Origin: Candidatus Poribacteria bacterium
Lineage (GTDB): Bacteria > Poribacteria > WGA-4E > WGA-3G
DNA length: 64,000 nt
Reading direction: 5' to 3'
Assembly: GCA_965198235.1 (NCBI GenBank)
Contig: OZ240248.1
Coordinates: forward strand, 4,416,001-4,480,000
Shown: positions 16,488 to 53,536 of the stretch, in pieces
Numbering within the stretch: position 1 is the first letter of the stretch
How the letters are laid out: each line of letters opens with the position of its first letter
Made by a program: the position numbers and the translations under genes
Notes under the pieces: generated by a model
The model's input: the letters and a program-made list of their open reading frames with translations, nothing else
Told to the model about the DNA's origin: nothing
The model's database searches: none

Positions 16488-17966
16488 ATGCCAAGCTACC
16501 TCACAACAGCAAAGTATTTGAACGGCATCCACTGTCTCAAACGGCTCTGGTATGAAGAAAAACACACTGAAAAAGCATCACCTATCTCCTTGTCCCAGCA
16601 GCGACTTTTCGATCAGCGCAAAGCGGTAAAAACCCTTGCCCACTGCCAATTTCCAGAGGGTGTATACATTGACGCTAAAGACCCTGATGTTGCCGTCCGA
16701 CAAACTAAAACCGCAATGCGTCGTGGCGAATCCTGTCTCTTCGACGCTGCCTTTCGTTCAAATGGTGCTTTCGTCCGATGCGATATCCTCCAAAAAGACA
16801 AAAAAGGGTGGCGAATCATTGAGATTAGAACATCAAAGAAAATCAAAAAGGAATATCTCCTTAACTTGGCTTTACAAAGGCACATTTTGGATACATACGA
16901 TATACCGATCTCTGCTACGCAATTGATGCTCCTAAACGAAGAGTGCGTTTATCCAGATTTGTCCAATCTGTTTGTTTTTGAAGATGTGACGGATAAGGTT
17001 AATTTGTTAAAACAGGGAGTCCCTGACTATCTATCGACGTTCAAGACAACACTCTACAGAGATGTTGAACCGAACGTCCTGATTGGAAAAAACCTATGCA
17101 ACCAGCCCCATAGATGCCCCTACAAAACATCCTGTTGGGCGTTTGTGCCTAAGAATTCGGTTTTCACTATTCCGAGAATCAAAGATCCCGAAGCGACTGC
17201 CTTGGCAGAAAATGGTATTTTTCGCCTCTCCGATCTCCCAGCCGATTTCTCGCTGACCCCTGTGCAAAGCACCTATGTTGACAGCGTTCTTGAAAATAAA
17301 CCAGTAATCGACAGAGTCGCAATCCGACAAGAATTAGCAAACTTGCAGTATCCGATCCACTTTCTCGATTTTGAGACCGATAGCCCCGCGATTCCAAGGT
17401 TCGACGGTTTCAAGGTCCACGAAGAATTTCCGTTTCAATACAGCTGTCACGTCCTTCAATCCGATGGCGTGGTTACACATCACGAATACCTGCATACCGA
17501 TATAACCGATCCACGTTTACCGCTCTTGAAATCTCTGCTCGCGCACATTGCCGACCGCGGTTCTATAGTCGTTTACAATCTGTCCCTTGAACGTCGGATA
17601 TTAAGAGGTTTGACTGAATCTTTCCCCGAATACACTCCGGCACTTCAATCAATCATTAAAAGACTCTGGGATCAGTTGACGATACTCAGAAAACACTATG
17701 AGCATCCTGATTTCTGCGGTTCTAAATCCCTCAAGGTGGTCCTTCCTGTGTTAGTGCCTTCGCTTTCCTATAAGACTTTAGACATTCAAGAGGGTGGTGC
17801 CGCGCCAGCAGTTTGGAATTTGATGCTCAGTGCAAACAATGAAACCGAAAAAAACGAATGGATTAATCGTTTGAGAGCCTACTGTAAACTCGATACGCTT
17901 GCTATGCTTGAAATCCATAAGGTGTTGCAAGAAAAAAGCACCATAGCCGTCAATTTAGTGCTGTAG
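16488..17966 (+). CDS. DUF2779 domain protein (Cas4-like N-terminal nuclease fold plus RNase H-like domain)
   Basis: C.KRLW...C...CPY..SC cysteine set; YPIHFLDFET, PFQYS, SLKVVLP, YCKLDT. Confidence 0.82.
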   Translation: MPSYLTTAKYLNGIHCLKRLWYEEKHTEKASPISLSQQRLFDQRKAVKTLAHCQFPEGVYIDAKDPDVAVRQTKTAMRRGESCLFDAAFRSNGAFVRCDILQKDKKGWRIIEIRTSKKIKKEYLLNLALQRHILDTYDIPISATQLMLLNEECVYPDLSNLFVFEDVTDKVNLLKQGVPDYLSTFKTTLYRDVEPNVLIGKNLCNQPHRCPYKTSCWAFVPKNSVFTIPRIKDPEATALAENGIFRLSDLPADFSLTPVQSTYVDSVLENKPVIDRVAIRQELANLQYPIHFLDFETDSPAIPRFDGFKVHEEFPFQYSCHVLQSDGVVTHHEYLHTDITDPRLPLLKSLLAHIADRGSIVVYNLSLERRILRGLTESFPEYTPALQSIIKRLWDQLTILRKHYEHPDFCGSKSLKVVLPVLVPSLSYKTLDIQEGGAAPAVWNLMLSANNETEKNEWINRLRAYCKLDTLAMLEIHKVLQEKSTIAVNLVL

Positions 17967-18206
17967 GTTGGGTTGAACGGAACTGAAAAGTCCAATGCCG
18001 ACACCTCAAACACGTCTCAAACATAATAGCAGTTATATGCTATCAAAGACATAGTAAAACCCAACTTTATACCCTCATCTCCAAGCAACTCCACCGGAAA
18101 AGCGTTGGGTTTCACTCGGTCTTTCTGTGATAGAGGTCGTATGGAGCAAATATCGACTTTCTTTGAGTTGCTGACGTTTTGGTTCCGCCCGTTCAACCCA
18201 ACCTAC
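17963..18206. repeat. Inverted pair of 103-bp GTAG-REP-like elements (17963-18065 +, 18104-18206 -)
   Basis: GTAGGTTGGGTTGAACGG-N72-AGT(A/G)AAACCCAAC in both; the first supplies the TAG stop of the DUF2779 gene. Confidence 0.85.
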
Positions 18207-18638
18207 GATGAAATATTTTCTTAAATTGACATATATGGTGTTGCAAGAAAAAAGCACCTACCACACATAACGTGATAGGTGCTATGGAAACAGAGACTGC
18301 AATAGGTTAAGCGAAGTCCCTATTTGTCTCTACTTTTGGGAGGTTACAAAGCGTCTAAGAAGTCCTCAAGAAGACCTTTATAATTTATAACGCAAGTTTC
18401 CATCTATTTATAGACATAGCACCCCTACGGGGTGCGATTGCTCGTGTGGCCATTTTCTATAGACATAGCACCCCTACAGGGTGGGGAAAGTGCCTAAAGA
18501 ACCTTAATGCTCTAATTCCATTTTTTAAAAAAGTGGGCATTCATACAGCCAGTTTATTTTCCTACTTCTTATCTTTACCCTCGTCAACGACTTCGCTATC
18601 GGCAGATTTAGTAGTACCTACATCCATCTGTTCTGATT

Positions 18639-19244
18639 TTACGCCTTCTGTGCGACCATACTGGAGAGGATGCCAAGAACTTTGTCGCACTGCGCGATTT
18701 GGTAGGTCGTCATATCGATATGCAGGCACTTTTCTCCCAATCTGAGGAATTGCCAATCTATACCTGTCGTAGAGGCACCATAAACGTAAGAGATATTATT
18801 CCCTTTTTCTTCATTAAAACGCTGGGCGGCGAGCATCTCGGCGACACATTGTCCGAGTCCAAGTTTCACGTCCGTATTTTTTGCTTCGACAAGAATAATG
18901 ACAGGTGCTTCCACATAAAATTGGTTCGACGACAGACTTACCAAAAAATCGCACACTCCGGTCAAGCCGCTTTCAGGATCAACGCTGAACTCAATCCCAG
19001 AAAATAAGCTGATGCGGCGATCTAAGTGTTCAAGAAGGTCAACGAGCACATCGGCGACAATCATTTCTGAACGTGCTTTCTCTGTACCGATAGCAGTGGC
19101 TAATGGTGCCTTCTTCGCTAATCCCGTCGTGAGATACTCACTTGGGGTCACTGGTTCCACTTCAGAAAAGAGTCCCGCGGTGTCAACCTTTTCAAGTTGA
19201 AACGTTGACACTACCGATTCTAAAGTAAATTCACTGTAAGCCAT
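18639..19244 (-). CDS. PD-(D/E)XK nuclease-like hypothetical protein, tandem paralog 2
   Basis: EKARSE, GVCDFL, ILVEAK, GLGQC.AEM.AAQ, TTG..W.F; 201 aa. Confidence 0.75.
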   Translation of the reverse strand: MAYSEFTLESVVSTFQLEKVDTAGLFSEVEPVTPSEYLTTGLAKKAPLATAIGTEKARSEMIVADVLVDLLEHLDRRISLFSGIEFSVDPESGLTGVCDFLVSLSSNQFYVEAPVIILVEAKNTDVKLGLGQCVAEMLAAQRFNEEKGNNISYVYGASTTGIDWQFLRLGEKCLHIDMTTYQIAQCDKVLGILSSMVAQKA

Positions 19245-19275
19245 TGAGTCTCCTCCATGGAACCACAGGATCCGT

Positions 19276-19881
19276 TTACGCTTTTTGTGCGGCCATACTG
19301 GAGAGGATGCCGAGGATCTTGTCGCACCGCTCAATCGTGTAGGTCGTCATATCAATGTGCAGACAGTTTCCCTCCAACTTGAGGAATTGCCAGTCGATCC
19401 CTGTCGTAGAAGCTCCATAAACACAAGAGATGTCATTTCCTTTCTCAGAATTAAAACGTTGGGCTGCGATCATCTCCGCTATACACTGCCCAAGTCCAAG
19501 TTTTATGTCAGCGTTTTTCGCCTCAACAAGGATGACAATAGGTACCTCCAAATAAAATTGATTTGGCGACAGACTTATTAAAAAATCACACACACCGGTC
19601 AAGCCATCTTCGGCATTAACGCTGAAGTCAATTCCAGAAAAGAAACTAATACGGCGATCGAAGTGCTCAAGGAGTTCAACGAGCACATCAGCGACAATCA
19701 ATTCCGATCGTGCTTTTTCGGTGCTGATAGCGGTAGCTAATGATGCTTTTTTTGCTAATGCTGTAGTGAGATGCGCACTGGGCATCACCGTTTCTACTTC
19801 AGAAAAGAGCCCTATGATATCAACCTTTTCGAGTTGAAACGTTGGCACTACCGATTCTAAGGTAAACTCACTATAAGCCAT
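19276..19881 (-). CDS. PD-(D/E)XK nuclease-like hypothetical protein, tandem paralog 1
   Basis: Same motifs and length (201 aa) as its neighbour; RBS GGAGG. Confidence 0.75.
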   Translation of the reverse strand: MAYSEFTLESVVPTFQLEKVDIIGLFSEVETVMPSAHLTTALAKKASLATAISTEKARSELIVADVLVELLEHFDRRISFFSGIDFSVNAEDGLTGVCDFLISLSPNQFYLEVPIVILVEAKNADIKLGLGQCIAEMIAAQRFNSEKGNDISCVYGASTTGIDWQFLKLEGNCLHIDMTTYTIERCDKILGILSSMAAQKA

Positions 19882-19967
19882 TGATCGAACCTCCCCTATA
19901 GCACTAGACGATTACTAAGGAACAACTGCATCTTAACACTACTGTAACGGCACACGGCGTGTGCCTA

Positions 19968-21896
19968 CTACCGTTTTTTCTCGTCCTCGTCAACGACTTC
20001 ATATTCAGCGTCAACGACATCACTGTCAGGGGCATCAGTCGTCGCGTCAGCCGCAGATGGGTCTCCTGCAGCAGCTCCGGGATCCACATCGGCTGTCTGC
20101 TGATACATCTGCGCGGAAACCTCATGCCAGACCTGTGTTAATTCCTCCGTCGTGGATTGGATCTCTGCATGGTTGTCCGCTTCTAATGCCTGCTTGACAC
20201 GGGCAACAGCAGCGTTCACTTTCTCCTTGGAAGCATCGTCTACCTTGTCACCGAACTCATTCAGGTTCTTCTCAGTCTCGTAAACCATAGAATCGGCGCG
20301 GTTGCGAGTCTCAACTTCCTCCCGTTTCTGCTTATCCTCTTCGGAGTGTGCTTCGGCATCTTTCACCATCTGATCGATCTCGGCATCGGTAAGCCCAGAA
20401 GACGCGGTAATGGTAATCTTCTGCTCTTTACCGGTTGCGGTATCCTTAGCAGACACGTTGAGGATGCCATTTGCGTCAATATCAAACGTCACTTCAATCT
20501 GTGGTATGCCTCTCGGTGCCGGAGGTAACTCGCTCAAACGAAAACGTCCGATGGTTTTGTTGTAAACCGCTTGCTCCCGTTCACCCTGGAGGACATGCAC
20601 ATCGACAGATGTCTGATTATTCGCAGATGTCGTGAATATATTTGATTTCTTCGTAGGAATTGTTGTATTCCTGTCAATCAACCGCGTGAACATTCCGCCA
20701 AGCGTCTCAATCCCAAGTGAGAGCGGTGTGACATCCAACAAAAGAATATCTTTGACTTCTTCGTCTCCAGCAAGCACGCCCCCTTGGATTGCCGCACCGA
20801 TTGCGACGACTTCATCCGGATTGACACCCTTGTGTGGTTCTTTACCGAAGAGTTGCTGTACGGCTTCTTGAACCTTAGGCATACGTGTCTGTCCACCGAC
20901 GAGAATGATTTCATCAATACCGGAGGCTTGCATTTCAGCGTCCGCAAGGGCTTGTCGACAAGGCTCAAGCGACCGTTGGATCAGGTCATCTGTGATTTGC
21001 TCGAGTTTTGGGCGAGTAAGCGTCAAGTTAAGGTGCTTCGGTCCGCTGGCATCGCTGGTAATAAAAGGCAGATTAATATCAGCCTGTTGCGTGCTGGAAA
21101 GCTCACACTTCGCTGTTTCTGCCGCCTCCTTCAGGCGTTGCAGAGACATCTGATCGTTGCGGAGATCGATCCCTTGGCTACTCAGGAATTCTTGTGCCAT
21201 CCAGTCAATAACCGCTTGATCAAAGTCATCACCACCGAGGTGCGTATCACCGTTGGTACTTTTCACCTCAAAAACGCCATCCCCGATTTCCAGGATAGAG
21301 ATGTCAAACGTGCCACCTCCGAGGTCATAGACCGCAATCTTCTTATCGCCTTCACTCTGCAATCCGTAAGCGAGGGACGCGGCAGTCGGTTCGTTGATAA
21401 TCCGCTCAACTTCTAACCCTGCGATTCTACCTGCATCGGCTGTCGCCTGACGTTGGGCATCGTTGAAGTAGGCAGGAACGGTAATAACCGCTTTCGTGAC
21501 CTCCTCTCCGAGGTATGCCTCGGCGGTTTCTTTCATCTTCCGCAAAACCATAGCGGAAATTTCGGGTGGCGAGTAATCCTTGCCATCAATATTTACAGCG
21601 ACATCGCCCTCTCTATCTGCTTTTAATTCATAAGGCACGCGGGAGGAATCGTCACCAATCTCGTTATATTTCCTTCCCATAAACCTTTTAATCGAAAAGA
21701 TTGTATTTTGTGGGTTCGTGATAGCTTGTCTTTTTGCAACCAATCCAACAGGGCGCTCACCGTCGCTGGTGAAACCAACAATCGAGGGGGTCGTCCGGTT
21801 TCCCTCAGTGTTTTCAATCACCTTGGCATCGCCGCTCTCTAAAACAGCCACACATGAATTTGTCGTACCTAAATCTATTCCAATGACTTTGCTCAT
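19968..21896 (-). CDS. dnaK: Molecular chaperone DnaK (Hsp70)
   Basis: [45 protein letters not shown]. Confidence 0.99.
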
Positions 21897-22055
21897 TTCT
21901 GATTTGTCTCCTTTGTATCAATAGTTTCAAGGTAGGCACATCGCGCTTACAATGCGCCCACCAATAAAATAAAGAAATTCCTTTTGTGCTTCGCCACCAC
22001 CGCACCTTTACTTCAGAAAATAGGTCTGCAACATCTTCCTATTTACCGAATAGTG

Positions 22056-22072
22056 TGCAATATTTGTGCCAA
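22056..22072 (-). promoter_or_regulatory. sigma54 (-24/-12) promoter of dnaK
   Basis: Minus strand TTGGCAC-AAATA-TTGCA matches the consensus exactly; palindrome TGCCAA-A-TTGGCA at 22113-22125 upstream. Confidence 0.75.
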
Positions 22073-22154
22073 TAGCAATTGATGGAAATAGCGGAAATTC
22101 CCGCTGATTGTCTGCCAAATTGGCACAGTCTTAAAAGGGTTATGATTGCATCTG

Positions 22155-22997
22155 TCAATTTGACCCATCGCGCATGTCATACCTCTGTTTGAGAAGCCCC
22201 CATGTTGTCGGCAATTTTTCATCTGGCTCAACAGCCAAAATCTCTTGAATACTACCCTGAATTTCTTTAACCTCATCTTGTGAAAGCCCACGGTTAAAGA
22301 GTGCAAACTCATCAATAACACCGTTATAGTAGCGATTGAGAGCCGGAGGATCCTCCCTACCGAGCAGGAGCGGTGCATCAATCGGCACCAGTTCATTGCC
22401 ATTCTTCGGGTAATCTATCAGGACCTCGCCATCAAGATAGACGGTCCACCACTCCCCACTCTGGAATGAAACGGCGACGTGCTGCCATTTGTCTTTAACG
22501 ACATCGCGAGGGCTTTGTGCGGGAACAACGCGCCCACCTGTCAGCTTCCAGCCCATCCATATAAAACCGTCAGGATGGAGCAGCACCTCAAAGAATTCCT
22601 GCACGTCAGGTCCCTTCGCCGCTATCAGTTGCCATGTGCCGGGTCCCGCCTTCAAAGTGGGCAGAATCCAAGCGGCAATCGTAATTCCATCGGTAAACTC
22701 AAACGCATCGGAATGTTCTACGCTAACGATCCCATTTTTCCCGCCGAAATTCACAGCTTTCCCGAATTTACCATCCGTCCACGACGTATCTCCCTCCAAT
22801 TTCCCATCTTGCCCGTTACCAGAGAGATCCGCAACGGTTTTACCAGCACCCTCTTCAAAAGCAAAATAGACGACCAAACCCTCAAGTTCCGCGGCTGTGC
22901 CGACACTTTGTAAACTCACTGCCAGATACACAACACACAAGCAAATCATTCTTACATACGAGGCTTTGGTTTGCAAGTTACGCCAAAAGTTACGCAT
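22155..22997 (-). CDS. Secreted LamG-like jellyroll protein with C-terminal 'AVEPDEKLPTTWGLLK' tail
   Basis: Signal peptide; YFAFEEG, DLSGNG, GKFGKA, WQHVA, GVIDE. Confidence 0.88.
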   Translation of the reverse strand: MRNFWRNLQTKASYVRMICLCVVYLAVSLQSVGTAAELEGLVVYFAFEEGAGKTVADLSGNGQDGKLEGDTSWTDGKFGKAVNFGGKNGIVSVEHSDAFEFTDGITIAAWILPTLKAGPGTWQLIAAKGPDVQEFFEVLLHPDGFIWMGWKLTGGRVVPAQSPRDVVKDKWQHVAVSFQSGEWWTVYLDGEVLIDYPKNGNELVPIDAPLLLGREDPPALNRYYNGVIDEFALFNRGLSQDEVKEIQGSIQEILAVEPDEKLPTTWGLLKQRYDMRDGSN

Positions 22998-23085
22998 GAG
23001 TATCCTCCATTTTCGTTGGGTTAGTTCGTTAAACGATACAGGCGGATGTCAAGAACACCCGCCCGTGAAACACTTACATATATCT

Positions 23086-23808
23086 CTAAACAAACGGGAA
23101 TGTCCCTTGATACCCGCGTGGACGAGAGACATGCCAAACGCCTTCATACATCGGTGTCACCTGATAATGACACACGACATTGCTCCGCTCCATATCGTCC
23201 CGCTCTTTGGCACCTTGATGCGGGATGTGATTGATAAACACGACACAATCGCCCGCCTTCGGATACAGGATAACATGTTCTTGTGCGTCACACCACGCCT
23301 CGAATTTAGGACGATCTAATGGATAGAGGTACGGCGGCTCTGTCAGATGACCGCCTTTGATAAACTTGAGATGTCCCTCACCCGGGTCGTTGTCTTGGAA
23401 ATAGTAGGTGGTGTTAATCCCGGCGGGTGCCATTGCAAACGGATGTTCTTCAACATACCGCTTTTCCTGCCAATAGCCGTAAAAATCCATGTGCCATTCT
23501 TGGAGATAAGGACCCGGATTGATGTGCGCCCGTAGACTCCGCAACTGGCACTGTTTGCCCATCAATCCCTCAAGATACGGACGGACACTCGAATGCCCGA
23601 CAAGTGACTCATACGTATCGGGTTCCCGATCCAGGAGGGTATCGAACCACATGTTGCCGACGGCGTTCAAGCCTTCCTCCCATCCCATTTTACGTGCATA
23701 ATTGATGCGCTGACGGATATGCGCTGTCTCATCTGGTGACAACGCGCCCTCTATCAAAACGAAACCTTGCTGTTGCAGTTTCTCGAGTTCATCTTTGATG
23801 TCTGCCAT
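23086..23808 (-). CDS. PhyH family dioxygenase
   Basis: QGFVLIEGAL, WHMD, GGH, KAGD, HQG. Confidence 0.85.
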   Translation of the reverse strand: MADIKDELEKLQQQGFVLIEGALSPDETAHIRQRINYARKMGWEEGLNAVGNMWFDTLLDREPDTYESLVGHSSVRPYLEGLMGKQCQLRSLRAHINPGPYLQEWHMDFYGYWQEKRYVEEHPFAMAPAGINTTYYFQDNDPGEGHLKFIKGGHLTEPPYLYPLDRPKFEAWCDAQEHVILYPKAGDCVVFINHIPHQGAKERDDMERSNVVCHYQVTPMYEGVWHVSRPRGYQGTFPFV

Positions 23809-23882
23809 TGTCTCATCTCCTTTTGAAGATTTAAAGTTGCTGACGGTATTCTATACACTTATGCGACAGGTGTCAACCTTAA

Positions 23883-23975
23883 TAGGACTTACGCAATTTT
23901 TTTACGAGTCGCTGCTGCCATGTGCTGCTGGCGAGGTTTCAAACCTCGCCAGCAGAGGAAGCTGCGTAAGTCCTG
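23883..23975. mobile_element. 93-bp MITE with AGGACTTACGCA terminal inverted repeats and an internal hairpin; inverted copy at 53560-53653
   Basis: TAGGACTTACGCA...GCTGGCGAGGTTTCAAACCTCGCCAGC...TGCGTAAGTCCTG in both copies. Confidence 0.75.
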
Positions 23976-23976
23976 C

Positions 23977-25461
23977 TTAATTGCCAACGAACAGTTTGGC
24001 GAACAAACCCCAGCCGCTTATCCCGGCAAATATAATAAGTACAGCCGCGGAAATCAGAGCACCGACGAACATGAACGGACGCGTCCGATAAGCAGTGGGC
24101 AGCTTCGCATTGAGATACAGGGCTGCGAGCATCATCAATGCGATTGAAAAATTCGCCAAAATAAAGCCAGCAATCTGTGTCAAAATGTCAAACGGGATGT
24201 TCAACCAAATTAGCACGATCGTCGTAAGAAAAATATAGAGACAGACCCACCTGCGAAGTGTGTCGTAACTCCATTCGCGTTGGGGCCAGATCGCTTGAAA
24301 GAACTCTTGCATCACCCGTGCATAAATCTCTGGGAGTGCCTGTAGCGTTCCCCACAGCGCAACGATGATACAGATGTAGTACACCCATACCAGTGAGGCA
24401 TGAATATTTTTCCAGACACTCGCTTGATCGGTCAGCAGGCTCCATCCCTCAAAAGTGCTTTGCATTCCATACAGGACAGCCGCACCCGAGATCATGAACG
24501 CGCCCGTCACGATAAAGAGTACGATCGCGCCCATGCCGATATCCCACCGAAGCGGGGCAAGGATTTGCCGGAGTTGGCTAACCTGTTCAGGTTGTTCAGG
24601 AAGATAATCGACTTTATTACGGTTGGCGGCGCGCTGACGGATAGCCCCAATGTTTCGATGTGCTGTCATCCCCCAACGGTGGAGGCTCACCCAATTCGCG
24701 TAGACGACATACCCCATTACAGAGCCACCGACGTAACCAAACGCAGTCGCCATTGTCAATAAAGGGTTTTCAACCGCATCTTTGGGTGCCCATTCAGGGA
24801 ATTCAGGCACATATCCAAAACGGAGACTCCCAACGAGTGCTTTGCCAAAGTCAGGACGCACCATCAGCGTGCCAATAACCGTTCCGAGAACCAGAATCAG
24901 ACAGATAATGAGTTGCTGTTTCTCCAGTCTTTCAAAGGAGATACGTAAACCGAAAAGGAGTGCGAGGGTGATGAAGCAGGACGTGATTAGGTTTTCCCAA
25001 ATGGGCTGTGAGACCCCTGCAGGCAGTGTGTCTTTCAACAGAAAATGGAGCAGTGCACCGCACGGTTTGCCGATCGGCACCCATGCCAAAGGCGCGCCTA
25101 TCATCTCAAAGAGGACAATCGCAATGAGGAGCCATCCCCGCGGTCCAGGTAGCTTGACAAGCCGCTCTCCGATATATTCACCGCTAACCGCGGTATAACG
25201 TCCGAGTAGGTAGGTGACGAAGATGCCCTTTACGACGCAGCTGAGGAGCACAAGCCAGAGCAAGTTATATCCTGCCCACGCCCCTGCCCGGACGACAACA
25301 ATCGTTTCGCCCGCCCCGATACTCACTGAAGCAACAATCGCCGCGGGTCCAAACACCGATGCAAGCGCAATAATCTTTTTTAGTGACCACGGTTCGGTAT
25401 AAGGACCGGTGACGGGTGGAAGGTCAACAGGTTCAGTCGTTTGTGTCTCTTCTGTTTGCAT
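23977..25461 (-). CDS. Nramp/APC-superfamily membrane transporter
   Basis: GPAAIVASVSIGAGE, GY.LLW, RYT..SGE, about 11 TM segments. Confidence 0.78.
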   Translation of the reverse strand: MQTEETQTTEPVDLPPVTGPYTEPWSLKKIIALASVFGPAAIVASVSIGAGETIVVVRAGAWAGYNLLWLVLLSCVVKGIFVTYLLGRYTAVSGEYIGERLVKLPGPRGWLLIAIVLFEMIGAPLAWVPIGKPCGALLHFLLKDTLPAGVSQPIWENLITSCFITLALLFGLRISFERLEKQQLIICLILVLGTVIGTLMVRPDFGKALVGSLRFGYVPEFPEWAPKDAVENPLLTMATAFGYVGGSVMGYVVYANWVSLHRWGMTAHRNIGAIRQRAANRNKVDYLPEQPEQVSQLRQILAPLRWDIGMGAIVLFIVTGAFMISGAAVLYGMQSTFEGWSLLTDQASVWKNIHASLVWVYYICIIVALWGTLQALPEIYARVMQEFFQAIWPQREWSYDTLRRWVCLYIFLTTIVLIWLNIPFDILTQIAGFILANFSIALMMLAALYLNAKLPTAYRTRPFMFVGALISAAVLIIFAGISGWGLFAKLFVGN

Positions 25462-25524
25462 AGAAGGTTCCCTATAACAACGAGCGGGCTTCTTTCGAAG
25501 CCCGCTCAATGCTACGTTATACGC

Positions 25525-27471: not shown

Positions 27472-27483
27472 AGCCTACTATTC

Positions 27484-36525: not shown

Positions 36526-36567
36526 CTTTAGTAACGTGAGTTCGATAATAAAAATAGAAATGTACAC

Positions 36568-36799
36568 GTAGGTTGGGTAGAGCGGTAAAAGACCAAATAC
36601 CCTTCGGTTCTACACACAACTTTGATGCGCAATGAACCGTTCAAGAAAATAGATATAGCGAAACCCAACACCCCAAAGCTCCAGGTCTCGCAATACGTTG
36701 GGTTTCACTCGACATATTTTCAACACGAGTCTCCTGAAAAGCAGCGGTTCTCTTGGAAGAATAGAGGCACACCTTTGATGACCGTTCTACCCAACCTAC
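36568..36799. repeat. Second inverted pair of 102/103-bp GTAG-REP-like elements (36568-36669 +, 36697-36799 -)
   Basis: GTAGGTTGGGTAGA(G/A)CGG-N71/72-AG(C/T)GAAACCCAAC. Confidence 0.85.
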
Positions 36800-36858
36800 G
36801 GGAACCAATGCATATATCGAACTCACGTTTTAGTAGAGAAAATCTAAGGGAATCAACG

Positions 36859-40285: not shown

Positions 40286-40322
40286 ATTTCTCTGACGACT
40301 TATAAAAAAAGGAGAATTTCTA

Positions 40323-42905: not shown

Positions 42906-42907
42906 TC

Positions 42908-45955: not shown

Positions 45956-46120
45956 ATGAAGATTCAGAATTTAATTCAGTAATGTATGGGAAACCGGCAC
46001 AAGACCTGGGGGCAGGCACAAGACCTGGGGGCAGGCACAAGACCTGGGAAACACCCAAGCAAAAACCCCCTACAGTGATTTTTTCGGATAGAATTACCGA
46101 AATATTTATTTAAACTTCAT
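45956..46120. mobile_element. MITE-like shell inserted in a REP; carries three 19-bp tandem repeats; second copy at 58690-58835
   Basis: ATGAAGATTCAGAATTTAATTCAGTAAT ... ATTACCGAAATATTTATTTAAACTTCAT; splits GGTAGGTGCGGTTTC|CCAACCGCAC. Confidence 0.7.
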
Positions 46121-46153
46121 CCAACCGCACTGGTATCAATGGAATTGTAGATA

Positions 46154-48412
46154 TTAACCTTCAGAAGCAACCCGTTTATTCAATTCTTGTCCCAGCAGTT
46201 GTGGGTCCCTACAGACGAGAAAATCCCATTTCTTCAGTTTACCCCAGTTATTAACTGCGGAGATCCATCGTCTGGCAGCAGCGTGTTTGGCGTGAACTTG
46301 ATCGGGCTCAAAACCTTTGATTTCCAAAACGAGATTGACTCCATTTTTGAGTCTGACGATAAAATCAGGTTCGTAGAGGTGAGATATGCCATCGTGTTCA
46401 TAGGGAATTCCGAGACCGAGATGATCATTGCGCACATAACACTCTACAACCTCTGATTGCTCAAGTCGAAATTTGGCTGCACGTTCCCATGTGTCCGTAT
46501 CCAGCACGACCTGATTCACATGACTCCACTGCGTTTCCACACACGAACGGGGCGTGAGAAAGTCAACATCAGCAGATGTACCGATCGGCGCATAGCGGTT
46601 CAGGATGGGGAGGAGCGGAATTTCACCCTTTGTCTCATCGGGTTGAATCGCCGTCATGAGTCGTTCCACAATACGCGTGACGTATTTTTCTTGTCCGAGT
46701 TCACACGGATTACACCCGCGGAAATTCACCTTTGTTTTCACGTAGGCATCAACGAACCTGAAAACCTGTGGAAAGAGACGATGCCGAGAAAGCAACCGGA
46801 GTTTGGGATTGCTGTCTGGGTCTGGAGCAGTTTGGCTATCGCCGACCAATTTGTGGACGATCCGATGCGCAATCTCAAACTGAATGGCTTGCAGATGTGT
46901 CGTCCGATAAAATTCCTCACGATCCTGTAGGACTGCGCCGCCGGGCCCTGATGCGGAAGGGATGCCGGTTTCGTATCCGACAGCGGCTTTAACATAGAGC
47001 GCGGTCGGGTTAATTTCGGGTTGAATGCTGAGCGGTTCCGTTGATGCAATATCCGCTTTGATTTCGTTTTTCTGAAGGGCAAAGGCGTACCCTTCAACAA
47101 CCGGAAATCGAATCTCAAAATGTTCACGATCAGGGAGGGCACGGACGTGGTTTTTCGGCTTGTCATCGGGGGCGCGGGCACCTGTGGCTCTGCCCCTAAA
47201 GGGTATAACGGAGAAGGGGATGCCGTAGACATCGACGTATTCCTCGGTAAGCAGCCCGGTTTCTGGGTCGGGTGTGTAATTCATGCGGCGTAACCCGCGC
47301 CCGACGACCTGTTCACAGAGCAACTGGCTGCTAAAGGCGCGCAGCCCTAAAATATGTGTGACGTTGCTGGCATCCCAACCTTCGTTGAGCATCGCGACAG
47401 AGACAACGCATCGGATCTGTTCACCCGGCTGTCCTCGCTTGCCGATTGTAGCGACGATTTGTCGTAAATCTTCGGCGGCTTGGCTTCGGTTTTTTGTGGG
47501 ATCTTCGCTCTCCGCTTCTGCCAGCATTTTGCTATCAATGCGCAGTGTTCGTGTAACCCCTTCACTGTTTGCGAGCAGCTCAGGAAAGATCGCGCCCTGT
47601 TCATAGACTATTTTCGTCTGCTTTTTCTTTCGGCGTCCACTGGTGCTGCCATCATCAACGACTTCGGTCTCGCTTTCCCCAGAAATTTTTCGATAAAAAT
47701 ACTCCGCAATATTGGTATCAGCACAGACGATAATCAGGACGGGTGGTGTTTTTTCTTGAGCATCTGATGCTTCTTGAATGTATTCAAAACGTTCTTTCCA
47801 CTGGCTGGCAAGCGTGATGAGTGCCGCTTCCGCCTCGCGATAGATGGCTTCCGGTTTAGGTGTTCTCCGCCGCCTACCCGGGGACGTGTCTGCAGCCGAG
47901 AGATCGTCACTGATCGTCTTCCACAATCGGAAGAACTTCGGCTCGGGTCTGCCGGTGGTATCACTGACGGGCAATCTGGGAATCTTGGTGATGCCGCTCT
48001 CAATGGCGTCCACCAAACCGAAATCACTGACGAGCCAAGGGAAAGGTGAACCTTCCGGGTGCCCGCTGCCTTGAATATAGAACGGTGTGGCAGAGAGATC
48101 TACGCAAAACTTCACACCACACGCTTGGTTGAATGCGTCTAAGCCATTCACCCAGACGGTGGCTTCTTGGCGCTCCTTTTTTTCCTCAGCAGAGAGTTTA
48201 TCTTCAGTATCCGCGGGACGATAGGCGTGATGCCCCTCATCATTAAGGACCATAAGTGGCGCACGGTCATAGAGTTCGCCTAAGACGCGCTTGGCAAAAG
48301 CGTCCGGTGTTTCGTCACCTTTATCGACAACAGTGTAAGTTTGACCGCCTTCGCTATGCGGGGATTCCGGTGCGAATTGATGCCAATTCGTGACCAATAC
48401 CTTCCCGCTTTT
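46154..48412 (-). pseudogene. res: Type III restriction enzyme Res subunit, C-terminal fragment without start or Walker A
   Basis: GKVLVTNW, DEGHH, SATP, MLNEGWD, QVVGRGLRR, PDF...LEIKG. Confidence 0.85.
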
Positions 48413-48570
48413 GAATCTTTTGAATGGGACTGGATAAAGAATACACCTCTGATATTATCAGCAGTATCATTATCTTTGAGCGTGCTCAGGACGCGTTGAG
48501 TTTTATTGGCACTCCCCGCTCCATGATGCGGTCCATCATCGAAGGTTAGGATGATATCTACATTTGCCAT
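48413..48570 (-). pseudogene. N-terminal fragment of a polysaccharide deacetylase (NodB) cut off at the res junction
   Basis: ILTFDDGP ... VLSTLK ... GVFFI, then runs out of frame into res. Confidence 0.7.
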
Positions 48571-48632
48571 GATTTAAATTATCCTTTTATGGTAAAATAA
48601 GCTCCAAAACCTAATGTCTGGAGATTGGTTAA

Positions 48633-49145
48633 ATGTTTAGGAAGAAACTCTCCCTACTCTGCTGTTTATTCAGCATACTTGTTATGTTCCAAGGTTGCAC
48701 TTCAAAATCTAATGACACCCGGCTCCGCGAAACATTTACCGAATATGAATCTCAATACGAAAACGGATACATACCGCCCCGTCCGTACGAATCCATAGCA
48801 CTCATGGATGCGAACCTATCCGTAAAGGATTTAGAACGCTTGCTCGATCTCATAGAAGCCCGTATCAATGCCCAAACTCTCAAAGACTCTCTCGCCATAG
48901 AAGCGAAAATAGATAAACAATTAAGTCGCCTCTTTAATGCGATTTGTCCTATAGAAGGTAAACTAAAGTATGGCAGCGGCAGATCCTTTGATGGATACTA
49001 TGTTCCAAGAATTAACCGTCGCGTGAGAGATATTCTCCATGAATTTTCTCGGATACGGACACACGAAGCACTATCAACCGCAAGACAAGTCGTTTTCGAT
49101 ACCGAAGTCCAAATCCAAAGACAACTGAACCTCATTGATTGGTAG
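48633..49145 (+). CDS. Hypothetical lipoprotein
   Basis: MFRKK plus hydrophobic stretch plus FQG|C lipobox-like site; RBS GGAG. Confidence 0.6.
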   Translation: MFRKKLSLLCCLFSILVMFQGCTSKSNDTRLRETFTEYESQYENGYIPPRPYESIALMDANLSVKDLERLLDLIEARINAQTLKDSLAIEAKIDKQLSRLFNAICPIEGKLKYGSGRSFDGYYVPRINRRVRDILHEFSRIRTHEALSTARQVVFDTEVQIQRQLNLIDW

Positions 49146-49258
49146 AGCTGTTACGCTCCTTCCCTACAGCGACAGCACGCATCAAAATAAACGATCATGT
49201 CGTACCTGAAATGGTGTGGTTTCCGAACCTCGCCCATCCGATTTTTGTGTCAGACACC

Positions 49259-49471
49259 TTAAGACTTCTCATAAGCCTCAATCACTTTCTCCGCTGCCAT
49301 GAGTTCAGAATTCGCATCTTCAAGAAGCGTCTTCAAATCCGCGTTTTCACTTTCTAAGACCTGAATGCGCTTCGCATTCCCGCTAAAGATCTCTTTGATT
49401 CGGGCACTCAGCGAAAGCTTCTTTTCTCTCCGAGGTCGCTGGACTTTTGCGTCGGTTTCCATGGTATCCAC
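49259..49471 (-). CDS. Small coiled-coil hypothetical protein
   Basis: Strong RBS AAGGAGGT; heptad pattern. Confidence 0.6.
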   Translation of the reverse strand: MDTMETDAKVQRPRREKKLSLSARIKEIFSGNAKRIQVLESENADLKTLLEDANSELMAAEKVIEAYEKS

Positions 49472-49528
49472 CTCCTTTATTGACTTCGTTCGTAATTTGA
49501 TATACTACAATTGTCACTAACTACAACA

Positions 49529-49896
49529 CTACTCCGTCTCTATCCCCACATATTGAGTGAGATTGTAAATATGATACAAAACTTGCATACGCGCTTGAAG
49601 GTACGCCGCACGTTCCTTGTGATACGGAAGACTCCCTGCATCTAAAGTATCCAGATACTCGTCAATATAGCGCAGCATGCGTTTGGATTCATCAAGGTGT
49701 GCTTCAGAAGAAGTCCACTGAAAATCATCGAGATGCCACACAAAATCAGGATCCACTTCAGCGGTTTCCGGTGATACCGCCGCTGGGGGTTGGATCGGAA
49801 TTGCTGCCGCCTCCTCATCATTGCTTTTATAGATACCATACAGGATAAAACACAACCAAAGCAGAACAACAACGCCTAACACAATATTAACCCTTT
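49529..49896 (-). pseudogene. Membrane-anchored hypothetical protein, 5' end replaced by res sequence
   Basis: TM VLGVVVLLWLCFILYGIY begins right at the junction; the annotated ATG lies in res DNA. Confidence 0.5.
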
Positions 49897-50168
49897 CGGT
49901 AATTCGTCTCGCGCCAGCGTTCGACATCTGCGCGGAGGGCGTTGACTAACGGGAGATCATCCCATTCCTCTTCTCGGAACATTTGGAGTTGTGCGCTGCC
50001 AGTGCGTTGGGTTTTATACCAATAGCCTGCGTCGCGCCGTCCGGATTGCTTGACGGCTTCGCCGGTGAGGGTATCGTAGATCCAATGTGCGTTCGGTTTT
50101 TCGTAGGGACAGCACAAGATGGGTTGTTCTACGGGTTGGATTGGGATGTCGGGACGGTCTTGGTTCAT
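49887..50168 (-). pseudogene. res: Type III Res subunit, N-terminal fragment
   Basis: PILCCPYEKP..HW, GRR.A.Y, LVNALRADVERWR..NY, typical of type III Res N-termini; premature stop at the junction. Confidence 0.8.
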
Positions 50169-50210
50169 GAAGGTTCCTCATTTTCTGTGTATATTCTATG
50201 ATGTTTATTC

Positions 50211-51202
50211 CTATTTGTGATAATAAGGAAAGTCCCAATTCCACTCATCCCAATCCTTATTATACAGATCAGATGTCTCGAGCCGCTTGCGAACTGCTAC
50301 ACTGTATACCGAATCATCCCACCAACGCATATAACCGTCGCCACCACCTGGCATCTTTAGATCCAAATAATAGTCAGCTAGACCACGCAACGCCGGATCC
50401 TCCCATGCAAGTAATTTCGACAAATTGGAGATAAGGGAACCAATTGGAGTAAAATGCTCAATTTGTTCATTAGGGAAGGGGCAATGCTTAATGTGCGAGG
50501 TCAGTGCTACATTTAACTTACGCGCTTTGCCTTCATTAGCAGCATGCGTACATCATTGGATAGCGCGTGTGCTACTCTAATCCCTTGTGCCACTTTAAAT
50601 AACGTCCATGTGGTAAGATCAGCAACACAAAGCAAATCGAGGCCTAGGCGCGGATGCGACACGTGCAATTTATCAGACTCATGTAACTTTTGCTCAATAT
50701 TATTCTCCGGAGTTGAGTTATTACTTTTCCACGAATGCGAATGTGCTAACAACCCATAGACAATAGGGGCGTGCAATTCTTTGTAAGGGGTTCCTTCCCG
50801 GGCAGGATACAAGTTTTTGATTTTTACACAAGTCTTAACGGCTTTCTCAATATGCTCTGCCTTCAATGTGGTTTTACATTCAAACGCTGCGGCGACACCA
50901 GCTGCTAAAAAGATCTTTTCACCTTCGTCAATTAACTGCTTCGGATATATGCTCTTTAGAACTAACACATCAACCTGTGGACTTGTGTGACCGTCTTGAC
51001 CGATGATTCTTCCTTTTGTAACGACTTCATAGGTGCGTGGAAGCCATCCACTCAATAGATCACGCCAATTCTCTTCTCCTTGATCTCCAGCAGTACCCGG
51101 ATCTTCAGATGCTCGTTTTTGAATGTGCTTGTAATTTGCGGCCATCTTGTCCTGCAGCTGCTTCATGAAGTCATGTAAGTCGTGGGTTTTGTCTTCAGGC
51201 AT
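50211..51202 (-). pseudogene. DUF6602-like (PD-(D/E)XK) protein split by a frameshift at about 50513-50552
   Basis: DPGTAGDQGEENW, SPQVDV, AAFECKTTL; overlapping frame continues HFTPIGSLIS.LS..LAWEDP.LR.LADYY to 50211. Confidence 0.7.
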
Positions 51203-51502
51203 TATGTTTCTCCTATGTTATTTGTAACCCAAGTTGCCACCTATTTATTTTCACTGCGAAGCAATAGCACTCCGCTGGAGTGCGGTCGCTTAAATATGCC
51301 GTTTTCTATAGATATAGCACCCCGCTGGGGTGGGGGAGTGCTTGAAAAACCTTCTTTGGACGTTCAAAATTTGTGAGTAGCAACTTGGGTTATATTATCT
51401 ATTTGAAGTGCTGTTGTTTTCGACAACTTTTGCATTACGAGTGTATAAAGGCTTATTCCTGCTTTTTTGGCTTCATCTGTCAGGGCGCGATAAAGTTGTG
51501 CG

Positions 51503-52006
51503 TCAATCGGTTTCCGCCGCCTCTTGCAATACGTCATTCACAAGTGATGCTCCCAGGCGTACTCCGTTCTCTAGCAGTACGTCTAAAAGCGGCTTGATGG
51601 CATCGATCAAGCCGCTTCTCTTTGCTTCCAGCAAAATGCCAACTGTCCCTGTAACTGGTAATCCGATTCGTTTGGCATACCGTCGCGCATCTTTATCGTC
51701 AAGAATAACGAGCCGCGTGCCACGTTCTTTTGCAAGCGCGAAAACTGCGGCTTCTCCGCGATGTATACCCAGCTGAGCCAATTCGTCCAAGGGAGTTATC
51801 AATGTAACAGTCGTAATCCAGGGCACATCTTTGAGTGCCTGCTGACGAGCCATCCGCTCGGTGGCGAGAAACTCATTTTTGACATCTTCTGGAATCAATA
51901 CTTCCTTATAGAGGTCCCGCAGTAGGGAGAGCAGATCGAGTGTCCAGAGTGCAACAAGCGGACTATTATTGCTGATAACTGCTAGCTTCTCTAGCACTCT
52001 CAGCAT
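51503..52006 (-). CDS. DUF3368 PIN-like toxin
   Basis: VISNNSPL, IPEDVKNE, GEAAV.ALA, ILDDKDARR.A, GTVGIL..AK..GLI. Confidence 0.85.
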   Translation of the reverse strand: MLRVLEKLAVISNNSPLVALWTLDLLSLLRDLYKEVLIPEDVKNEFLATERMARQQALKDVPWITTVTLITPLDELAQLGIHRGEAAVFALAKERGTRLVILDDKDARRYAKRIGLPVTGTVGILLEAKRSGLIDAIKPLLDVLLENGVRLGASLVNDVLQEAAETD

Positions 52007-52922
52007 CCTCTCTGAGTTCCTCAAGCGTGAGTCTAATTGGAGAGAGACCGTGCTTTCCCATAGCGTATATAAACGCCTCACGGGACATCCCGGCGAAGCG
52101 CGCGGAGAGGCCTGTGCTGAGCTCTTCGCGGTCATACGCTTTTAACGCCAACTTTAGACGCGCCCCCTCCTCAAATTCGGGCATCGGCTTGTGCGGGCAC
52201 AGCATATCCAAGACATCTGCGGGCAATTGAATGCCGGTTTTCTGCGCAAACGCTGCGGTACTCCCATAGCGCGTATAAAATAGCGGACGAATGTCCACAC
52301 GTAAGATCGCCGCAACCGTCCAATCCGCTTTTGTCTTTTTCCAGTGCTGATAATGTAAATATGCGACACCGGCGTGTCCATAAGCCAGCCCCGCATCTGA
52401 ATCAAGTTTTATCGCCATATCAAAGTCGTCCAGTGCGTGTTGAATATCTAACCTATTGAGGTGGAGACTGCCCCGATTTGTATACGCCTCGGTGAGTTCC
52501 TGATTCAAACCTATCGCCATGGTATAGTCTTGGAGCGCATAAATCGTTTCGCCTTTTAGTTGATAAGCGATGCCGCGGTTGTTATACGCCTCTGCGTAGT
52601 TACGCTTACACTGGATTGCCCTGTAATACGCGCTCAGTGCTTTATCCACCTCACCTTTTTTCATGTAAGCGAGCCCTTGATTGTAATGGGCATTGACATA
52701 ATCCGATTTGAGATCTATCGCCTTCGCAAAGGCTGCGATCGCCTTGCCATACGCCCCGTTTTCGCAATAGGCAATACCGCGGGTGTTGTGCGCCTCGGCC
52801 TCGGCGAGGTTCGGGTGCTGTGTCGGTTTTGAAAACTCTCCGAGGCTGATACTATGTCCACACTGATATTCGTGTGCAAATCCACAATGAGAATAGATGT
52901 CAACGGCTTCGCTATTTTTCAT
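51966..52922 (-). CDS. TPR-repeat protein fused to a C-terminal UPF0175 antitoxin domain
   Basis: About five TPR repeats (AY.NRG.AY), then RLKLALKAY...LSTG.SARFAGMSREAF...G..G. Confidence 0.8.
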   Translation of the reverse strand: MKNSEAVDIYSHCGFAHEYQCGHSISLGEFSKPTQHPNLAEAEAHNTRGIAYCENGAYGKAIAAFAKAIDLKSDYVNAHYNQGLAYMKKGEVDKALSAYYRAIQCKRNYAEAYNNRGIAYQLKGETIYALQDYTMAIGLNQELTEAYTNRGSLHLNRLDIQHALDDFDMAIKLDSDAGLAYGHAGVAYLHYQHWKKTKADWTVAAILRVDIRPLFYTRYGSTAAFAQKTGIQLPADVLDMLCPHKPMPEFEEGARLKLALKAYDREELSTGLSARFAGMSREAFIYAMGKHGLSPIRLTLEELREDAESAREASSYQQ

Positions 52923-53433
52923 AATGGCAGTTCCTCTGATATTGGCGCGTTCCAGCAGGCGTTTTAAGTGTATCACCCTTCAATCAGCGGATCAAAAAGT
53001 CGACTCAAACAACAAGCATTAAGATAAATCTTCCAGAAACGAGCGTGTGGGTTTAGTGGCATTTTCTCTCCGATTTTTCGCATGAAAAAAAATTGCGGAA
53101 GGTGTAACATTCTTTCGACTCCGAATCCGTTGCGTTTCTCTGGAAGTTCCATGAGAATCCCCCTTAAAAATGTTACACTGGTGTAACATTTGGTGTATAA
53201 TGCTTATCGGCAGAAAACCCAGTGGCTGTAAGGGTTCATTGATGTTTTTTTCTGATGTCCCGCTGTAAAAAAAATAATTTTCTGTAAAGCGTAACATTTT
53301 TTTCAGATATTCTGAAGTCCTCGCGTTTTTTGTCGCGTGTCGTGGTATTAACGGCGGTCTGAAAGAACCATAAATATTATACTATATTTATCAGTAGTTT
53401 TCAAGTCAAAAGTTAATTTGAAAAACTATAAGC

Positions 53434-53536
53434 GTTGGGTTTCACTCGGCACCGCTGCGATGGAGGCGGTATTGAACAAATATCGGTTTTCTTTGAGTTG
53501 CCAGCGTTTTGCTCCCGCCCGTTCAACCCAACCTAC
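53434..53536 (-). repeat. Solo 103-bp GTAG-REP-like element
   Basis: Same arms; spacer clearly homologous to the 18104-18206 copy. Confidence 0.85.

Follow-up and report, generated by a model that had tools for sequence, protein, structure and literature searches.

A REP-like family with a long loop of nearly constant length, linked to group-2 RAYT genes

Can a repeat family conserve its length while the sequence between its ends changes? The question is raised by five copies of an element in a 64,000-nt stretch of a Candidatus Poribacteria genome (contig OZ240248.1, positions 4,416,001 to 4,480,000; the window), in which conserved arms enclose a variable loop. How REPs and REPINs are copied, and why hosts keep these elements and their RAYTs, is still an open question in the field. 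The family described here, which we call split REP, separates recognition, by the arms, from a pure length requirement on the loop.

The elements in the window

An earlier note on this DNA had listed five copies of 102–103 bp, and its coordinates and strands were all correct: the left arm matches five times in the window against 0.03 expected from shuffled sequence, and remeasurement gave 103, 103, 102, 103 and 103 nt for copies 17963, 18104, 36568, 36697 and 53434 (Table 1). Four of the copies do form two inward-facing pairs, leaving 53434 single. The loops fall into several distinct sequences as described, but into three subfamilies rather than four, and 36697 joins 18104 and 53434, which had been taken as the only clearly homologous copies.

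The GTAG of copy 17963 supplies the TAG stop codon of the DUF2779 open reading frame (16488–17966). Around this C/D doublet lies a short inverted motif whose role is uncertain because it is very common in the source genome. The loop of copy 36568 has a 93%-identical counterpart at a different locus in genome G079, and in near-identical paralogues of the 36568/36697 doublet the shared sequence extends out to the flanking 15-bp motif. A contig from an RNA library spans this doublet; such presence alone is not a sign of a transcript.

Table 1 Coordinates of the split REPs and associated features in the window
Feature	Position	Strand	Details
Split REP, subfamily C	17963..18065	+	left arm 17963-17979, loop, right arm 18053-18065
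Central linker of C/D doublet	18066..18103		38 nt
Split REP, subfamily D	18104..18206	-	partner of 17963
Short outer inverted motif round C/D doublet	17949..18230		GTCAATTTA (17949-17957) and TAAATTGAC (18222-18230)
Split REP, subfamily A	36568..36669	+	G-C inner pair
Central linker of A/D doublet	36670..36696		27 nt
Split REP, subfamily D	36697..36799	-	A-T inner pair; partner of 36568
Perfect 15-bp outer inverted repeat enclosing A/D doublet	36533..36829		AACGTGAGTTCGATA, copies 36533-36547 and 36815-36829
Split REP, subfamily D, single	53434..53536	-	

Copy number, length and loops in the source genome

The left arm matched 151 times genome-wide; for 39 of these matches no right arm lies at a distance of up to 400 nt. 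A limit of 130 nt leaves 111 arm pairs, of which 13 spanned 30–33 nt, 96 spanned 94–111 nt and two measured 72 and 80 nt; the short and long copies share the same arms. The genome-wide length count that the earlier note had proposed thus gave a narrow rather than a broad distribution, with 89 of the 96 long copies, a set that includes the five in the window, at 100–104 nt, and off-length copies number at most three per lineage per genome. By a crude ORF call, 88 of the 96 are intergenic. Close pairs number 31, all inward-facing and none made of a single subfamily, and 37 long copies are single; these showed no replichore bias (20 versus 17, with a noisy GC skew). No second split family was seen among the other GTAG stems of this genome.

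Five homologous subfamilies hold 89 of the 96 loops and 7 lie outside them. Similarity between subfamilies is faint (0.43–0.49 versus 0.44 for shuffled sequence), and some loops are recognisable in another family of the order; the five subfamilies, each made of mutually homologous loops, are old. A search with loop-only HMMs returned 17 matches outside the known set, of which only about 12 were credible extra copies, so the conservation of the arms is not an artefact of searching with them.

Three sites had been placed next to nuclease- or defence-type genes. The annotations of these neighbours were confirmed as DUF2779, DUF4411 (behind an IrrE/HTH gene) and N6_N4_Mtase. Across the genome, however, GC content used as a proxy gave no link between the family and accessory or defence islands: the genes beside the 62 intergenic regions that carry copies (0.495) have no lower GC than those beside 969 regions of at least 300 nt without one (0.488).

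Stem and predicted fold

Read along one strand, GTAG precedes a stem of 8 bp, then a tandem GA/GA mismatch and an inner stem of 2 bp whose bases co-vary. The stem closes a loop of 2–5 nt in the short form and about 72 nt in the long form. The inner pair is A–T in 74 copies and G–C in 37, and is broken in none of the 111 (5 of 173 in three other genomes); its states track the subfamilies, with only a few switches. Predicted folds contain the stem in 86 of 91 single units. The loops are no more structured than shuffles (z = −0.11 ± 0.10), only arm-derived stems are strong, and the spacer does not fold, as in a REPIN, to make one long hairpin of the whole element. Judged from sequence alone, the long-form loop is unstructured DNA that drifts neutrally. 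For a fully exposed strand of the two window doublets, an end-to-end hairpin is predicted to be favoured over the arm–arm stem (−42.5 versus −21.9 and −34.7 versus −19.0 kcal/mol), and the same holds for a doublet of overlapping layout (about −34 versus about −13 kcal/mol), which speaks against the split-stem reading proposed below.

The family shares with GTAG-type REPs a GTAG at the foot of an imperfect palindrome, a high copy number (111 arm pairs) and an extragenic location. A short hairpin of 20–40 nt overall with a small loop is found only in the 13 short copies and not in the 96 long ones (94–111 nt), so we class the long form as a REP variant rather than a canonical REP.

The cognate RAYT

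The cognate RAYT carries DHLH, WE and YIHYNP motifs, which place it in the E. coli TnpAREP group. Among 41 relatives, the six top-scoring RAYT matches were all flanked by long forms. Across the genus, the gene was found in 14 of 65 genomes, flanked by long forms in 11 and by short REPs only in three, and the RAYT of Desulfatibacillum alkenivorans is likewise flanked by long forms. The suggested REP/RAYT link therefore stands in relatives, but no cognate RAYT was found in the source genome itself. Three other RAYT-like genes there, and one broken one, are flanked by other repeats and were rejected. The cognate gene is patchy among genomes and occupies several different loci. We regard the REP/RAYT identity of the family as highly probable.

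Placing the long-form RAYTs in one clade was rejected (p-AU 0.008). Elements and RAYTs are transferable, so a span shared by separate RAYT branches may still go back to one origin. Most of 80 metagenome loci with related RAYTs have short REPs, and two have spans of 65–69 nt.

Recurrence of the span in other genomes

In the 41 relatives, 1,709 of 1,800 matches with spans of 39–228 nt fall at 96–108 nt. Arm searches allowing gaps of 0–200 nt found, in the cultured D. alkenivorans, 30 short copies, 38 at 96–101 nt and one 207-nt run beginning with a short REP, and in genome G082, 79 of 81 at 101–105 nt among the matches listed. A draw of 301 Desulfobacterales genomes gave 18 further positives, 16 with spans of 96–110 nt and two that are short-REP arrays; 401 Desulfobacterota drawn from the whole phylum added a single split copy, of 104 nt, along with five genomes in which the matches begin in a short REP. 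One fragmented Caldilineaceae MAG also has the split form, the only one among the 251 genomes of its class that were searched. An HMM search for loop homology across phyla found no matches, and is a weak test in that it missed most of the homologous loops of G031 and G037.

Spans of 91–110 nt from arm to arm recur in Desulfobacterales and next to other RAYTs. They occur in four layouts that differ in how the filler is made up, and some fillers contain an arm of the partner or an entire short REP. In the overlapping layouts, offsets of 9, 16–21 and 25–27 nt go with a middle that shrinks to about 60, 48 and 35 nt, and both mixed overlapping doublets that were found follow the far same-strand register. 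The earlier claim that length is constrained independently of loop sequence is borne out by this retention of the span across differently built fillers. Similar spacing in unrelated bacteria with differently built repeats points, at the level of sequence, to a molecular ruler and not to captured foreign DNA.

Conservation, drift and turnover

In genome G031 the units ride in a carrier MITE with terminal inverted repeats (TIRs) and 18 pairs of target-site duplications (TSDs) of 10 bp, as in DDE-type MITEs; the empty sites examined in the source genus gave no clean TSD. Private changes per site in this carrier amount to 1.6% in the loop, 1.7% in the linker, 1.6% in the TIR and 0.2–0.6% in the arms: the arms are kept in place while loop and carrier ends drift. 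Because the carrier seemingly moves by its own ends, conservation of the arms within it suggests a function at each locus. The arms are conserved also in genomes where the cognate RAYT was not found. Mutagenic copying of the loop is not supported in G031, in which loop, linker and TIR change at equal rates and neighbours are 86–97% identical. Pairs from G000 and G024 showed no general clustering of changes or transversion excess; the G079 pairs, few in number, are transversion-rich.

Between G024 and G045 one loop is only 49% identical while the adjacent 30 nt are 93% identical, a replacement at an orthologous site that is exact between the arms; either version resembles loops of subfamily D. 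From one species to the next hardly any unit keeps its position, and whole doublets occur in one species and are missing from another, with boundaries that take in extra flanking DNA. Indels within families occur at an ordinary rate (for the larger sets of pairs, mostly one per 9–17 substitutions), and in G031 they are not scarcer in the loop than in its linkers, so a tight length within a single lineage proves little alone.

What sets the length

The strongest rival is an ordinary old REPIN or MITE, in which one ancestral insertion into a REP loop was inherited and spread by transfer, and length persisted without a ruler simply as indels are rarer than substitutions. The five homologous subfamilies with their faint cross-similarity, the ordinary substitution-to-indel ratios and the tight spacing classes of SBW25 REPINs, in which no two spacers are identical (PMC3337134), all agree with it. 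Fillers holding the partner's arm or a whole short REP could not, however, be derived by substitution from one loop, yet they span 91–110 nt; offsets and middles compensate for each other, and off-length copies are few. We consider this account unlikely. We give still less credence to arms that are duplex sites for a dimeric protein, with a spacer setting helical phase or a DNA loop of about 7 turns, as the earlier note had entertained. The arm cores are inverted repeats, they persist where no cognate RAYT was found, and the loops contain A-rich patches; but spans differ between lineages by fractions of a turn (96–101, 101–105 and 104–106 nt), spans over all lineages cover every phase from 91 to 110, no clear second length peak lies one turn off, and for eight loop sets the best-fitting period of A/T tracts lies anywhere between 6 and 11, with no consistent helical period. 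Tandem GA and mini-loops, both single-strand features, occur in the short form, and the bases of the inner pair co-vary within one strand.

That the unit is a structured RNA of about 100 nt, or an mRNA 3' element whose stem closes a variable guide-like region, seems very improbable. Convergent gene order is commoner around occupied regions (13 of 62) than around unoccupied ones (87 of 969), and the first unit after a stop codon is mostly on the sense strand (30 versus 6), a bias that doublet geometry partly forces. Against this, the loops are unstructured, have no targets in the host and no match in Rfam, positions turn over almost wholly between species, and the family is linked directly to RAYTs. 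Measured capture of foreign DNA between the arms, akin to spacer acquisition and also raised in the earlier note, is the least credible of all. It could accommodate the 7 loops outside the subfamilies and the loop replaced at an orthologous site, but the other 89 are homologous, some recognisable in another family of the order, and the replaced loop and its counterpart are both D-like. The loops match nothing elsewhere in the host, nothing in phages (one window doublet searched) and nothing in plasmids beyond one arm-sized match of 23 nt, and the long form was not found in IMG/VR. Mutually unrelated spacers matching foreign DNA, as in CRISPR-like acquisition, were thus not seen, and capture is not supported.

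Proposed mechanism

We lean, on balance, towards a split REP that belongs to a RAYT system of group 2, like E. coli TnpAREP, and whose span is set by a physical ruler. The sequences show that units join into doublets of differing members and that their positions shift rapidly from species to species. By analogy with TnpAREP biochemistry, the RAYT would bind the stem on single-stranded DNA, cut the complementary copy in the partner at C|T sites, and excise, reinsert and recombine units, so that loops can be swapped at arm boundaries. With the RAYT patchy, and absent from the source genome, copies there are currently orphaned or served in trans. The same-strand arm-to-arm span would be held by a ruler acting on single-stranded DNA; we infer one because the span recurs in layouts whose fillers are made of different parts, and a real length ruler appears probable from these comparisons.

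The preferred candidate for the ruler would be a protein with about 65–70 nt wrapped around it and the two ends held close to each other, for example a single SSB tetramer. The SSB65 footprint and end geometry would fit, as far as the available text of 10.1101/2020.12.05.412478 goes, and the source genome encodes one SSB, with a single domain; we put SSB forward only tentatively. A joint reading, more speculative still, is that the recognition hairpin folds only around a host SSB tetramer (loops of 63–82 nt holding one fully wrapped SSB, rare ones of 36–41 nt a half-wrapped mode), which would gate the element to replication-fork DNA. The arrangement would have arisen more than once and be selected at each resident copy even without a cognate RAYT, with loops swapped as fixed-length cassettes.

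Relation to known systems

Within the available text of PMC3333891, PMC8266576 and PMC6006769, the closest likeness is to E. coli REPs and BIMEs with TnpAREP (RAYT group 2, subclass 2.2): a 5' GTAG, a stem broken by a mismatch of two bases, inverted doublets whose two members differ, C|T sites in the complementary copy, and a DHLH/WE/YIHYNP RAYT flanked by repeats. There TnpAEc is not specific for loop sequence. The difference is that the split REP has a loop of about 72 nt inside its palindrome. REP screening rules given in PMC6006769 ask for loops of 2–5 nt or a short second stem, and the longest GTAG loop region given in the accessible part of PMC3733652 is 27 bp. We found no description of a fixed span across several layouts in the accessible text of the cited REP literature, and no paper on a long-loop or split REP in the body text of open-access literature.

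SBW25 REPINs of Pseudomonas fluorescens, as far as described in the text available (PMC3337134, 10.1101/2021.07.10.451892), are likewise hundreds of extragenic doublets with conserved REPs, tight spacing classes, no two spacers alike and a single-copy RAYT. In those elements two complete REPs flank the variable spacer, which forms a hairpin and comes in many length classes. In the split REP the spacer is internal to every REP and unstructured, with a single main length class. RAYTs in 10.1101/2021.07.10.451892 typically stay at one site; the split-REP RAYT is patchy and found at several loci. The GTAG-15 dimers of Anabaena variabilis, in the part of PMC3733652 that is accessible, resemble the 36533–36829 arrangement and the G031 carrier in nesting REP units within outer inverted repeats, but have short loops of 9–15 nt. 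The short form of the split-REP stem may already be among the GTAG consensus sequences of that paper.

Integron attC sites are single-strand hairpins that also combine conserved arms with a variable terminal part. They differ in being served by a tyrosine recombinase rather than an HUH enzyme, and in a terminal part that as a rule is folded and has no constant length.

Other split families may have gone undetected, because published short-loop REP screens would miss them. Split REPs co-occur with an intact RAYT gene in the cultured and non-pathogenic D. alkenivorans DSM 16219.

A split REP of narrow length in the window genome

The five window copies reported in the earlier note, GTAG-type REPs with a loop of about 72 nt between conserved arms (split REPs, or long forms), were borne out by the window sequence. 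We scanned the whole genome holding the window (G000; 5.17 Mb, 48% GC) for the arms and obtained 151 left-arm matches, 39 of which had no right arm within 400 nt. Arm-pair spans (n = 111) were 30–33 nt in 13 cases, 94–111 nt in 96, and 72 and 80 nt in the other 2. The spacer-length histogram that had been proposed as a check proved narrow, with 89 of the 96 long copies at 100–104 nt.

In the short forms of this genome, GTAG is followed by an 8-bp stem, a GA/GA mismatch and two further base pairs that close a loop of 2–5 nt, frequently C-GNA-G; mini-loops of this type are stable in DNA. The long form has identical arms, with the loop exchanged for ~72 nt. Across the 111 arm pairs of G000 the inner pair was A-T in 74, G-C in 37 and never broken, and its state tracked the loop subfamily for most copies, with few switches; in three other genomes it was broken in 5 of 173 split-REP copies. 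Of 91 single units in G000, 86 were predicted to fold with the arm–arm stem formed; the loops folded no better than shuffles (z -0.11). Searching G000 with loop-only profiles returned 17 matches beyond the known set, about 12 of them credible and mostly truncated or with the 5' end replaced. As these profiles add so few credible copies, arm conservation is not solely an effect of the arm search pattern. Several G000 copies have lost the GTAG 5' part at one common point and are then joined to a CCCCAG-ended sequence, which resembles the end of a carrier MITE in the relative G031.

Split REPs and related features (C1, contig of G000; L numbers, fetched loci)
Feature	Genome	Location
Window copy, loop subfamily C	G000	window 17963-18065
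Window copy, loop subfamily D	G000	window 18104-18206
Window copy, loop subfamily A	G000	window 36568-36669
Window copy, loop subfamily D	G000	window 36697-36799
Window copy, loop subfamily D	G000	window 53434-53536
Copies without 5' GTAG part, CCCCAG junction	G000	C1 65595, 763478, 1896340, 2671893, 3095165
Copies without 5' GTAG part, CCCCAG junction	G000	partners of C1 1356106, 3265923, 4912017
GA-rich loop module	G026, G028, G029, G031, G034, G035, G037, G040	L105-L112
Carrier MITE with split-REP cargo	G031	L453-L482

The split REP works like the E. coli REP/BIME–TnpAREP system and like REPINs, but differs from both in having its variable stretch inside the palindrome. REPIN spacers, according to passages of PMC3337134, are grouped in narrow length classes, each spacer differing from all others. 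Loop regions of GTAG families reach 27 bp in the text of PMC3733652, and a screening rule for REPs quoted in a section of PMC6006769 specifies 2–5-nt loops or a short second stem. No description of the split REP was found in the open-access literature; it is a real variant of a known system and apparently unpublished.

The arm-to-arm span across lineages and layouts

The case for a length constraint is weak inside one lineage, since split-REP loops there acquire indels at an ordinary rate and the loop in G031 is no poorer in indels than the linkers. Comparison between lineages makes a strong case. Among 41 relatives, spans measured 96–108 nt in 1709 matches, 39–95 nt in 48 (none under 64) and 109–228 nt in 43, many of the last extending across a short REP or some other insert. 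Outside Poribacteria, arm searches allowing gaps of 0–200 in the cultured strain of Desulfatibacillum alkenivorans gave 30 short copies, 38 copies at 96–101 nt and a single run of 207 nt; many of the 96–101-nt copies stood in pairs facing outward. A Desulfobacterales MAG (G082) had 349 copies, none short, with spans of 101–105 nt in 79 of 81 among the matches listed, in an overlapping layout that places the partner's arm inside each loop. Because these two genomes had been chosen for matching, 301 Desulfobacterales genomes were drawn as a check; 20 matched, and 16 of the 18 besides the original two had spans of 96–110 nt, predominantly in a fourth layout, whose loop encloses an entire short REP. 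The best 80 metagenome RAYT loci carried mostly 21–37-nt REPs, with overlapping 96–102-nt units in 4 and units of 65–69 nt in 2. Overlapping layouts had arm offsets of 9, 16–21 or 25–27 nt with a middle of ~60, 48 or 35 nt; 2 of 16 overlapping doublets had unlike halves, and in these every left arm matched its own far same-strand right arm.

A tree of 53 RAYTs requires three changes to account for the 11 associated with long forms, two of them forced by strongly supported branches, and a single clade for these 11 was rejected (p-AU 0.008); D. alkenivorans sits on a long branch of unsure placement. A Caldilineaceae case (spans 91–97 nt) comes from one fragmented MAG that may be misbinned. Taken over these genomes, a span constraint independent of loop sequence is likely. 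In other genera, a GA-rich module of variable copy number, different from the ~72-nt loops, fills the REP loop and gives spans of 64–227 nt.

The earlier note had suggested, as one possible ruler for the span, about seven helical turns. Helical phasing fits poorly: lineage spans fall on every phase, and over eight loop sets the best A/T-tract period varied from 6 to 11, lying near 10–11 in three. With loops of 63–82 nt, a single-strand ruler would fit better, as a candidate. The E. coli SSB tetramer is described in part of 10.1101/2020.12.05.412478 as wrapping ~65 nt, the two strand ends exiting near each other; its alternative mode takes up ~35 nt. G000 encodes one SSB, single-domain, and the rare 64–69-nt spans have loops of 36–41 nt. 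This numerical fit makes SSB a tentative candidate for the ruler. Against it, in fully exposed doublets (two units in a close inverted pair) an end-to-end hairpin is favoured over the arm–arm stem by 15–21 kcal/mol, so the latter would need protein or a kinetic head start.

A cognate RAYT in related genomes

By tblastn, G000 has no cognate RAYT, that is, one flanked by split REPs; its RAYT-like genes are flanked by other repeats. Among the 41 relatives, all six of the best NF047646 matches are flanked by long forms. Single copies of a cognate-type RAYT occur in 14 of 65 genomes of the genus, with long forms as flanks in 11 and short forms in 3 more distant ones; the arm-flanked RAYT that the earlier note proposed seeking thus exists in relatives. 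The cognate protein has DHLH, WE and YIHYNP motifs, which a passage of PMC6006769 gives for the E. coli TnpAREP group (subclass 2.2). The gene occupies several different loci, and G024 has doublet–RAYT–doublet where the equivalent G000 site has a single doublet.

Portions of PMC8266576 and PMC3333891 state that E. coli TnpAREP requires the stem mismatch and not the loop sequence, and that it cleaves at C|T sites within the linker as well as the inverted copy. A conserved A precedes the right arm in 252 of 264 split-REP copies and lends itself to two readings, one half of a closing G-A pair or an opposite-strand C|T site; D. alkenivorans copies lack it.

The RAYT at G000:C1 614276-616122 is of a different type and has REPs of its own on its flanks; an IS605-type tnpB-like element splits it. 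About 9 kb from it there is a second RAYT, and the position at which relatives have the cognate RAYT (~610.8 kb) falls between the two. Five RAYT coding sequences (L370, L371, L373, L377 and L380) contain an in-frame short REP-like GTAG hairpin. A 1.8-kb stretch occurs twice in G000:C1 (36646-38440 and 812061-813855), with equal identity to the RAYT-locus flanks of G069, possibly as a duplication or an assembly repeat.

Conserved arms, mobile positions and divergent loops

In G031, a 235-nt MITE (~57 copies; own 17-bp inverted ends, 10-bp target duplications) carries a single split REP as cargo in each copy. Copies were chosen by a linker motif, independently of the arms; both arms were present in 28 of the 30 loci retrieved, and the other 2 were truncated. 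The two members of a target-duplication pair disagreed at 9 of the 180 sites compared. The rate of private changes per site was 1.6% for both the loop and the left TIR, 1.7% for the linker and 3/784 for the arms. The far lower figure for the arms argues that they have been conserved since insertion, whether through selection or through conversion between copies. The top RAYT match of G031 belongs to another clade than the cognate RAYT.

Few loci were common to two genomes (G024/G000, 2–3; G079/G000, 3; G045/G024, 2; the G024 set comprised 119 elements, with 100 of the 108 exact matches of G024 listed), and split-REP positions turn over fast. Loop identity at shared sites was 0.49–0.96 in the genus of G000. 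An orthologous doublet of G031 and G037 (L020/L045) was ~97% identical, its flanking genes ~84%; at the G024/G045 RAYT locus one loop was 49% identical, with nearly identical arms and 93% identity in the adjacent 30 nt. The median identity of a loop to its best match was 0.66–0.68 within each of G024 and G000 and 0.65 across the two genomes. Positions look young, yet had loops been duplicated faithfully and locally, nearer relatives than these would be expected. Two candidate sources of the divergence are influx from sister species that occur alongside and exchange driven by the RAYT; a 93%-identical copy of the loop at window 36568, found at another locus in G079, fits influx.

A measured capture step, also raised in the earlier note, is unlikely as the source of the loops. 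Five subfamilies take in 89 of the 96 long-form loops of G000, with a mean identity of 0.54–0.63 within and 0.43–0.49 between subfamilies, against 0.44 for shuffled sequence. The loops had no match in the rest of G000 beyond one truncated copy, one window doublet had none in phages, and the other matched plasmids once, over 23 nt, the size of an arm; the long form was absent from IMG/VR by exact-pattern search. These comparisons point to old paralogues rather than captures. All 31 close pairs in G000 face inward, and none joins two units of one subfamily (C-D, 10; A-B, 10).

Genomic context

The defence-type neighbours named earlier (DUF2779, DUF4411 and a methylase) were correctly identified, but genes flanking occupied regions are not GC-poor. 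Convergent gene arrangements are in mild excess among occupied regions of G000, where no replichore bias was seen. In the window, the stop of the DUF2779 ORF (16488-17966) is the TAG of the element's GTAG, so that the final codons of the ORF extend across the outer inverted motif. A second repeat family, of ATAGCACCCCTAC type, lies at window 18410-18500, 200 nt from the first doublet, and also flanks the RAYT at G000:C1 1898775.
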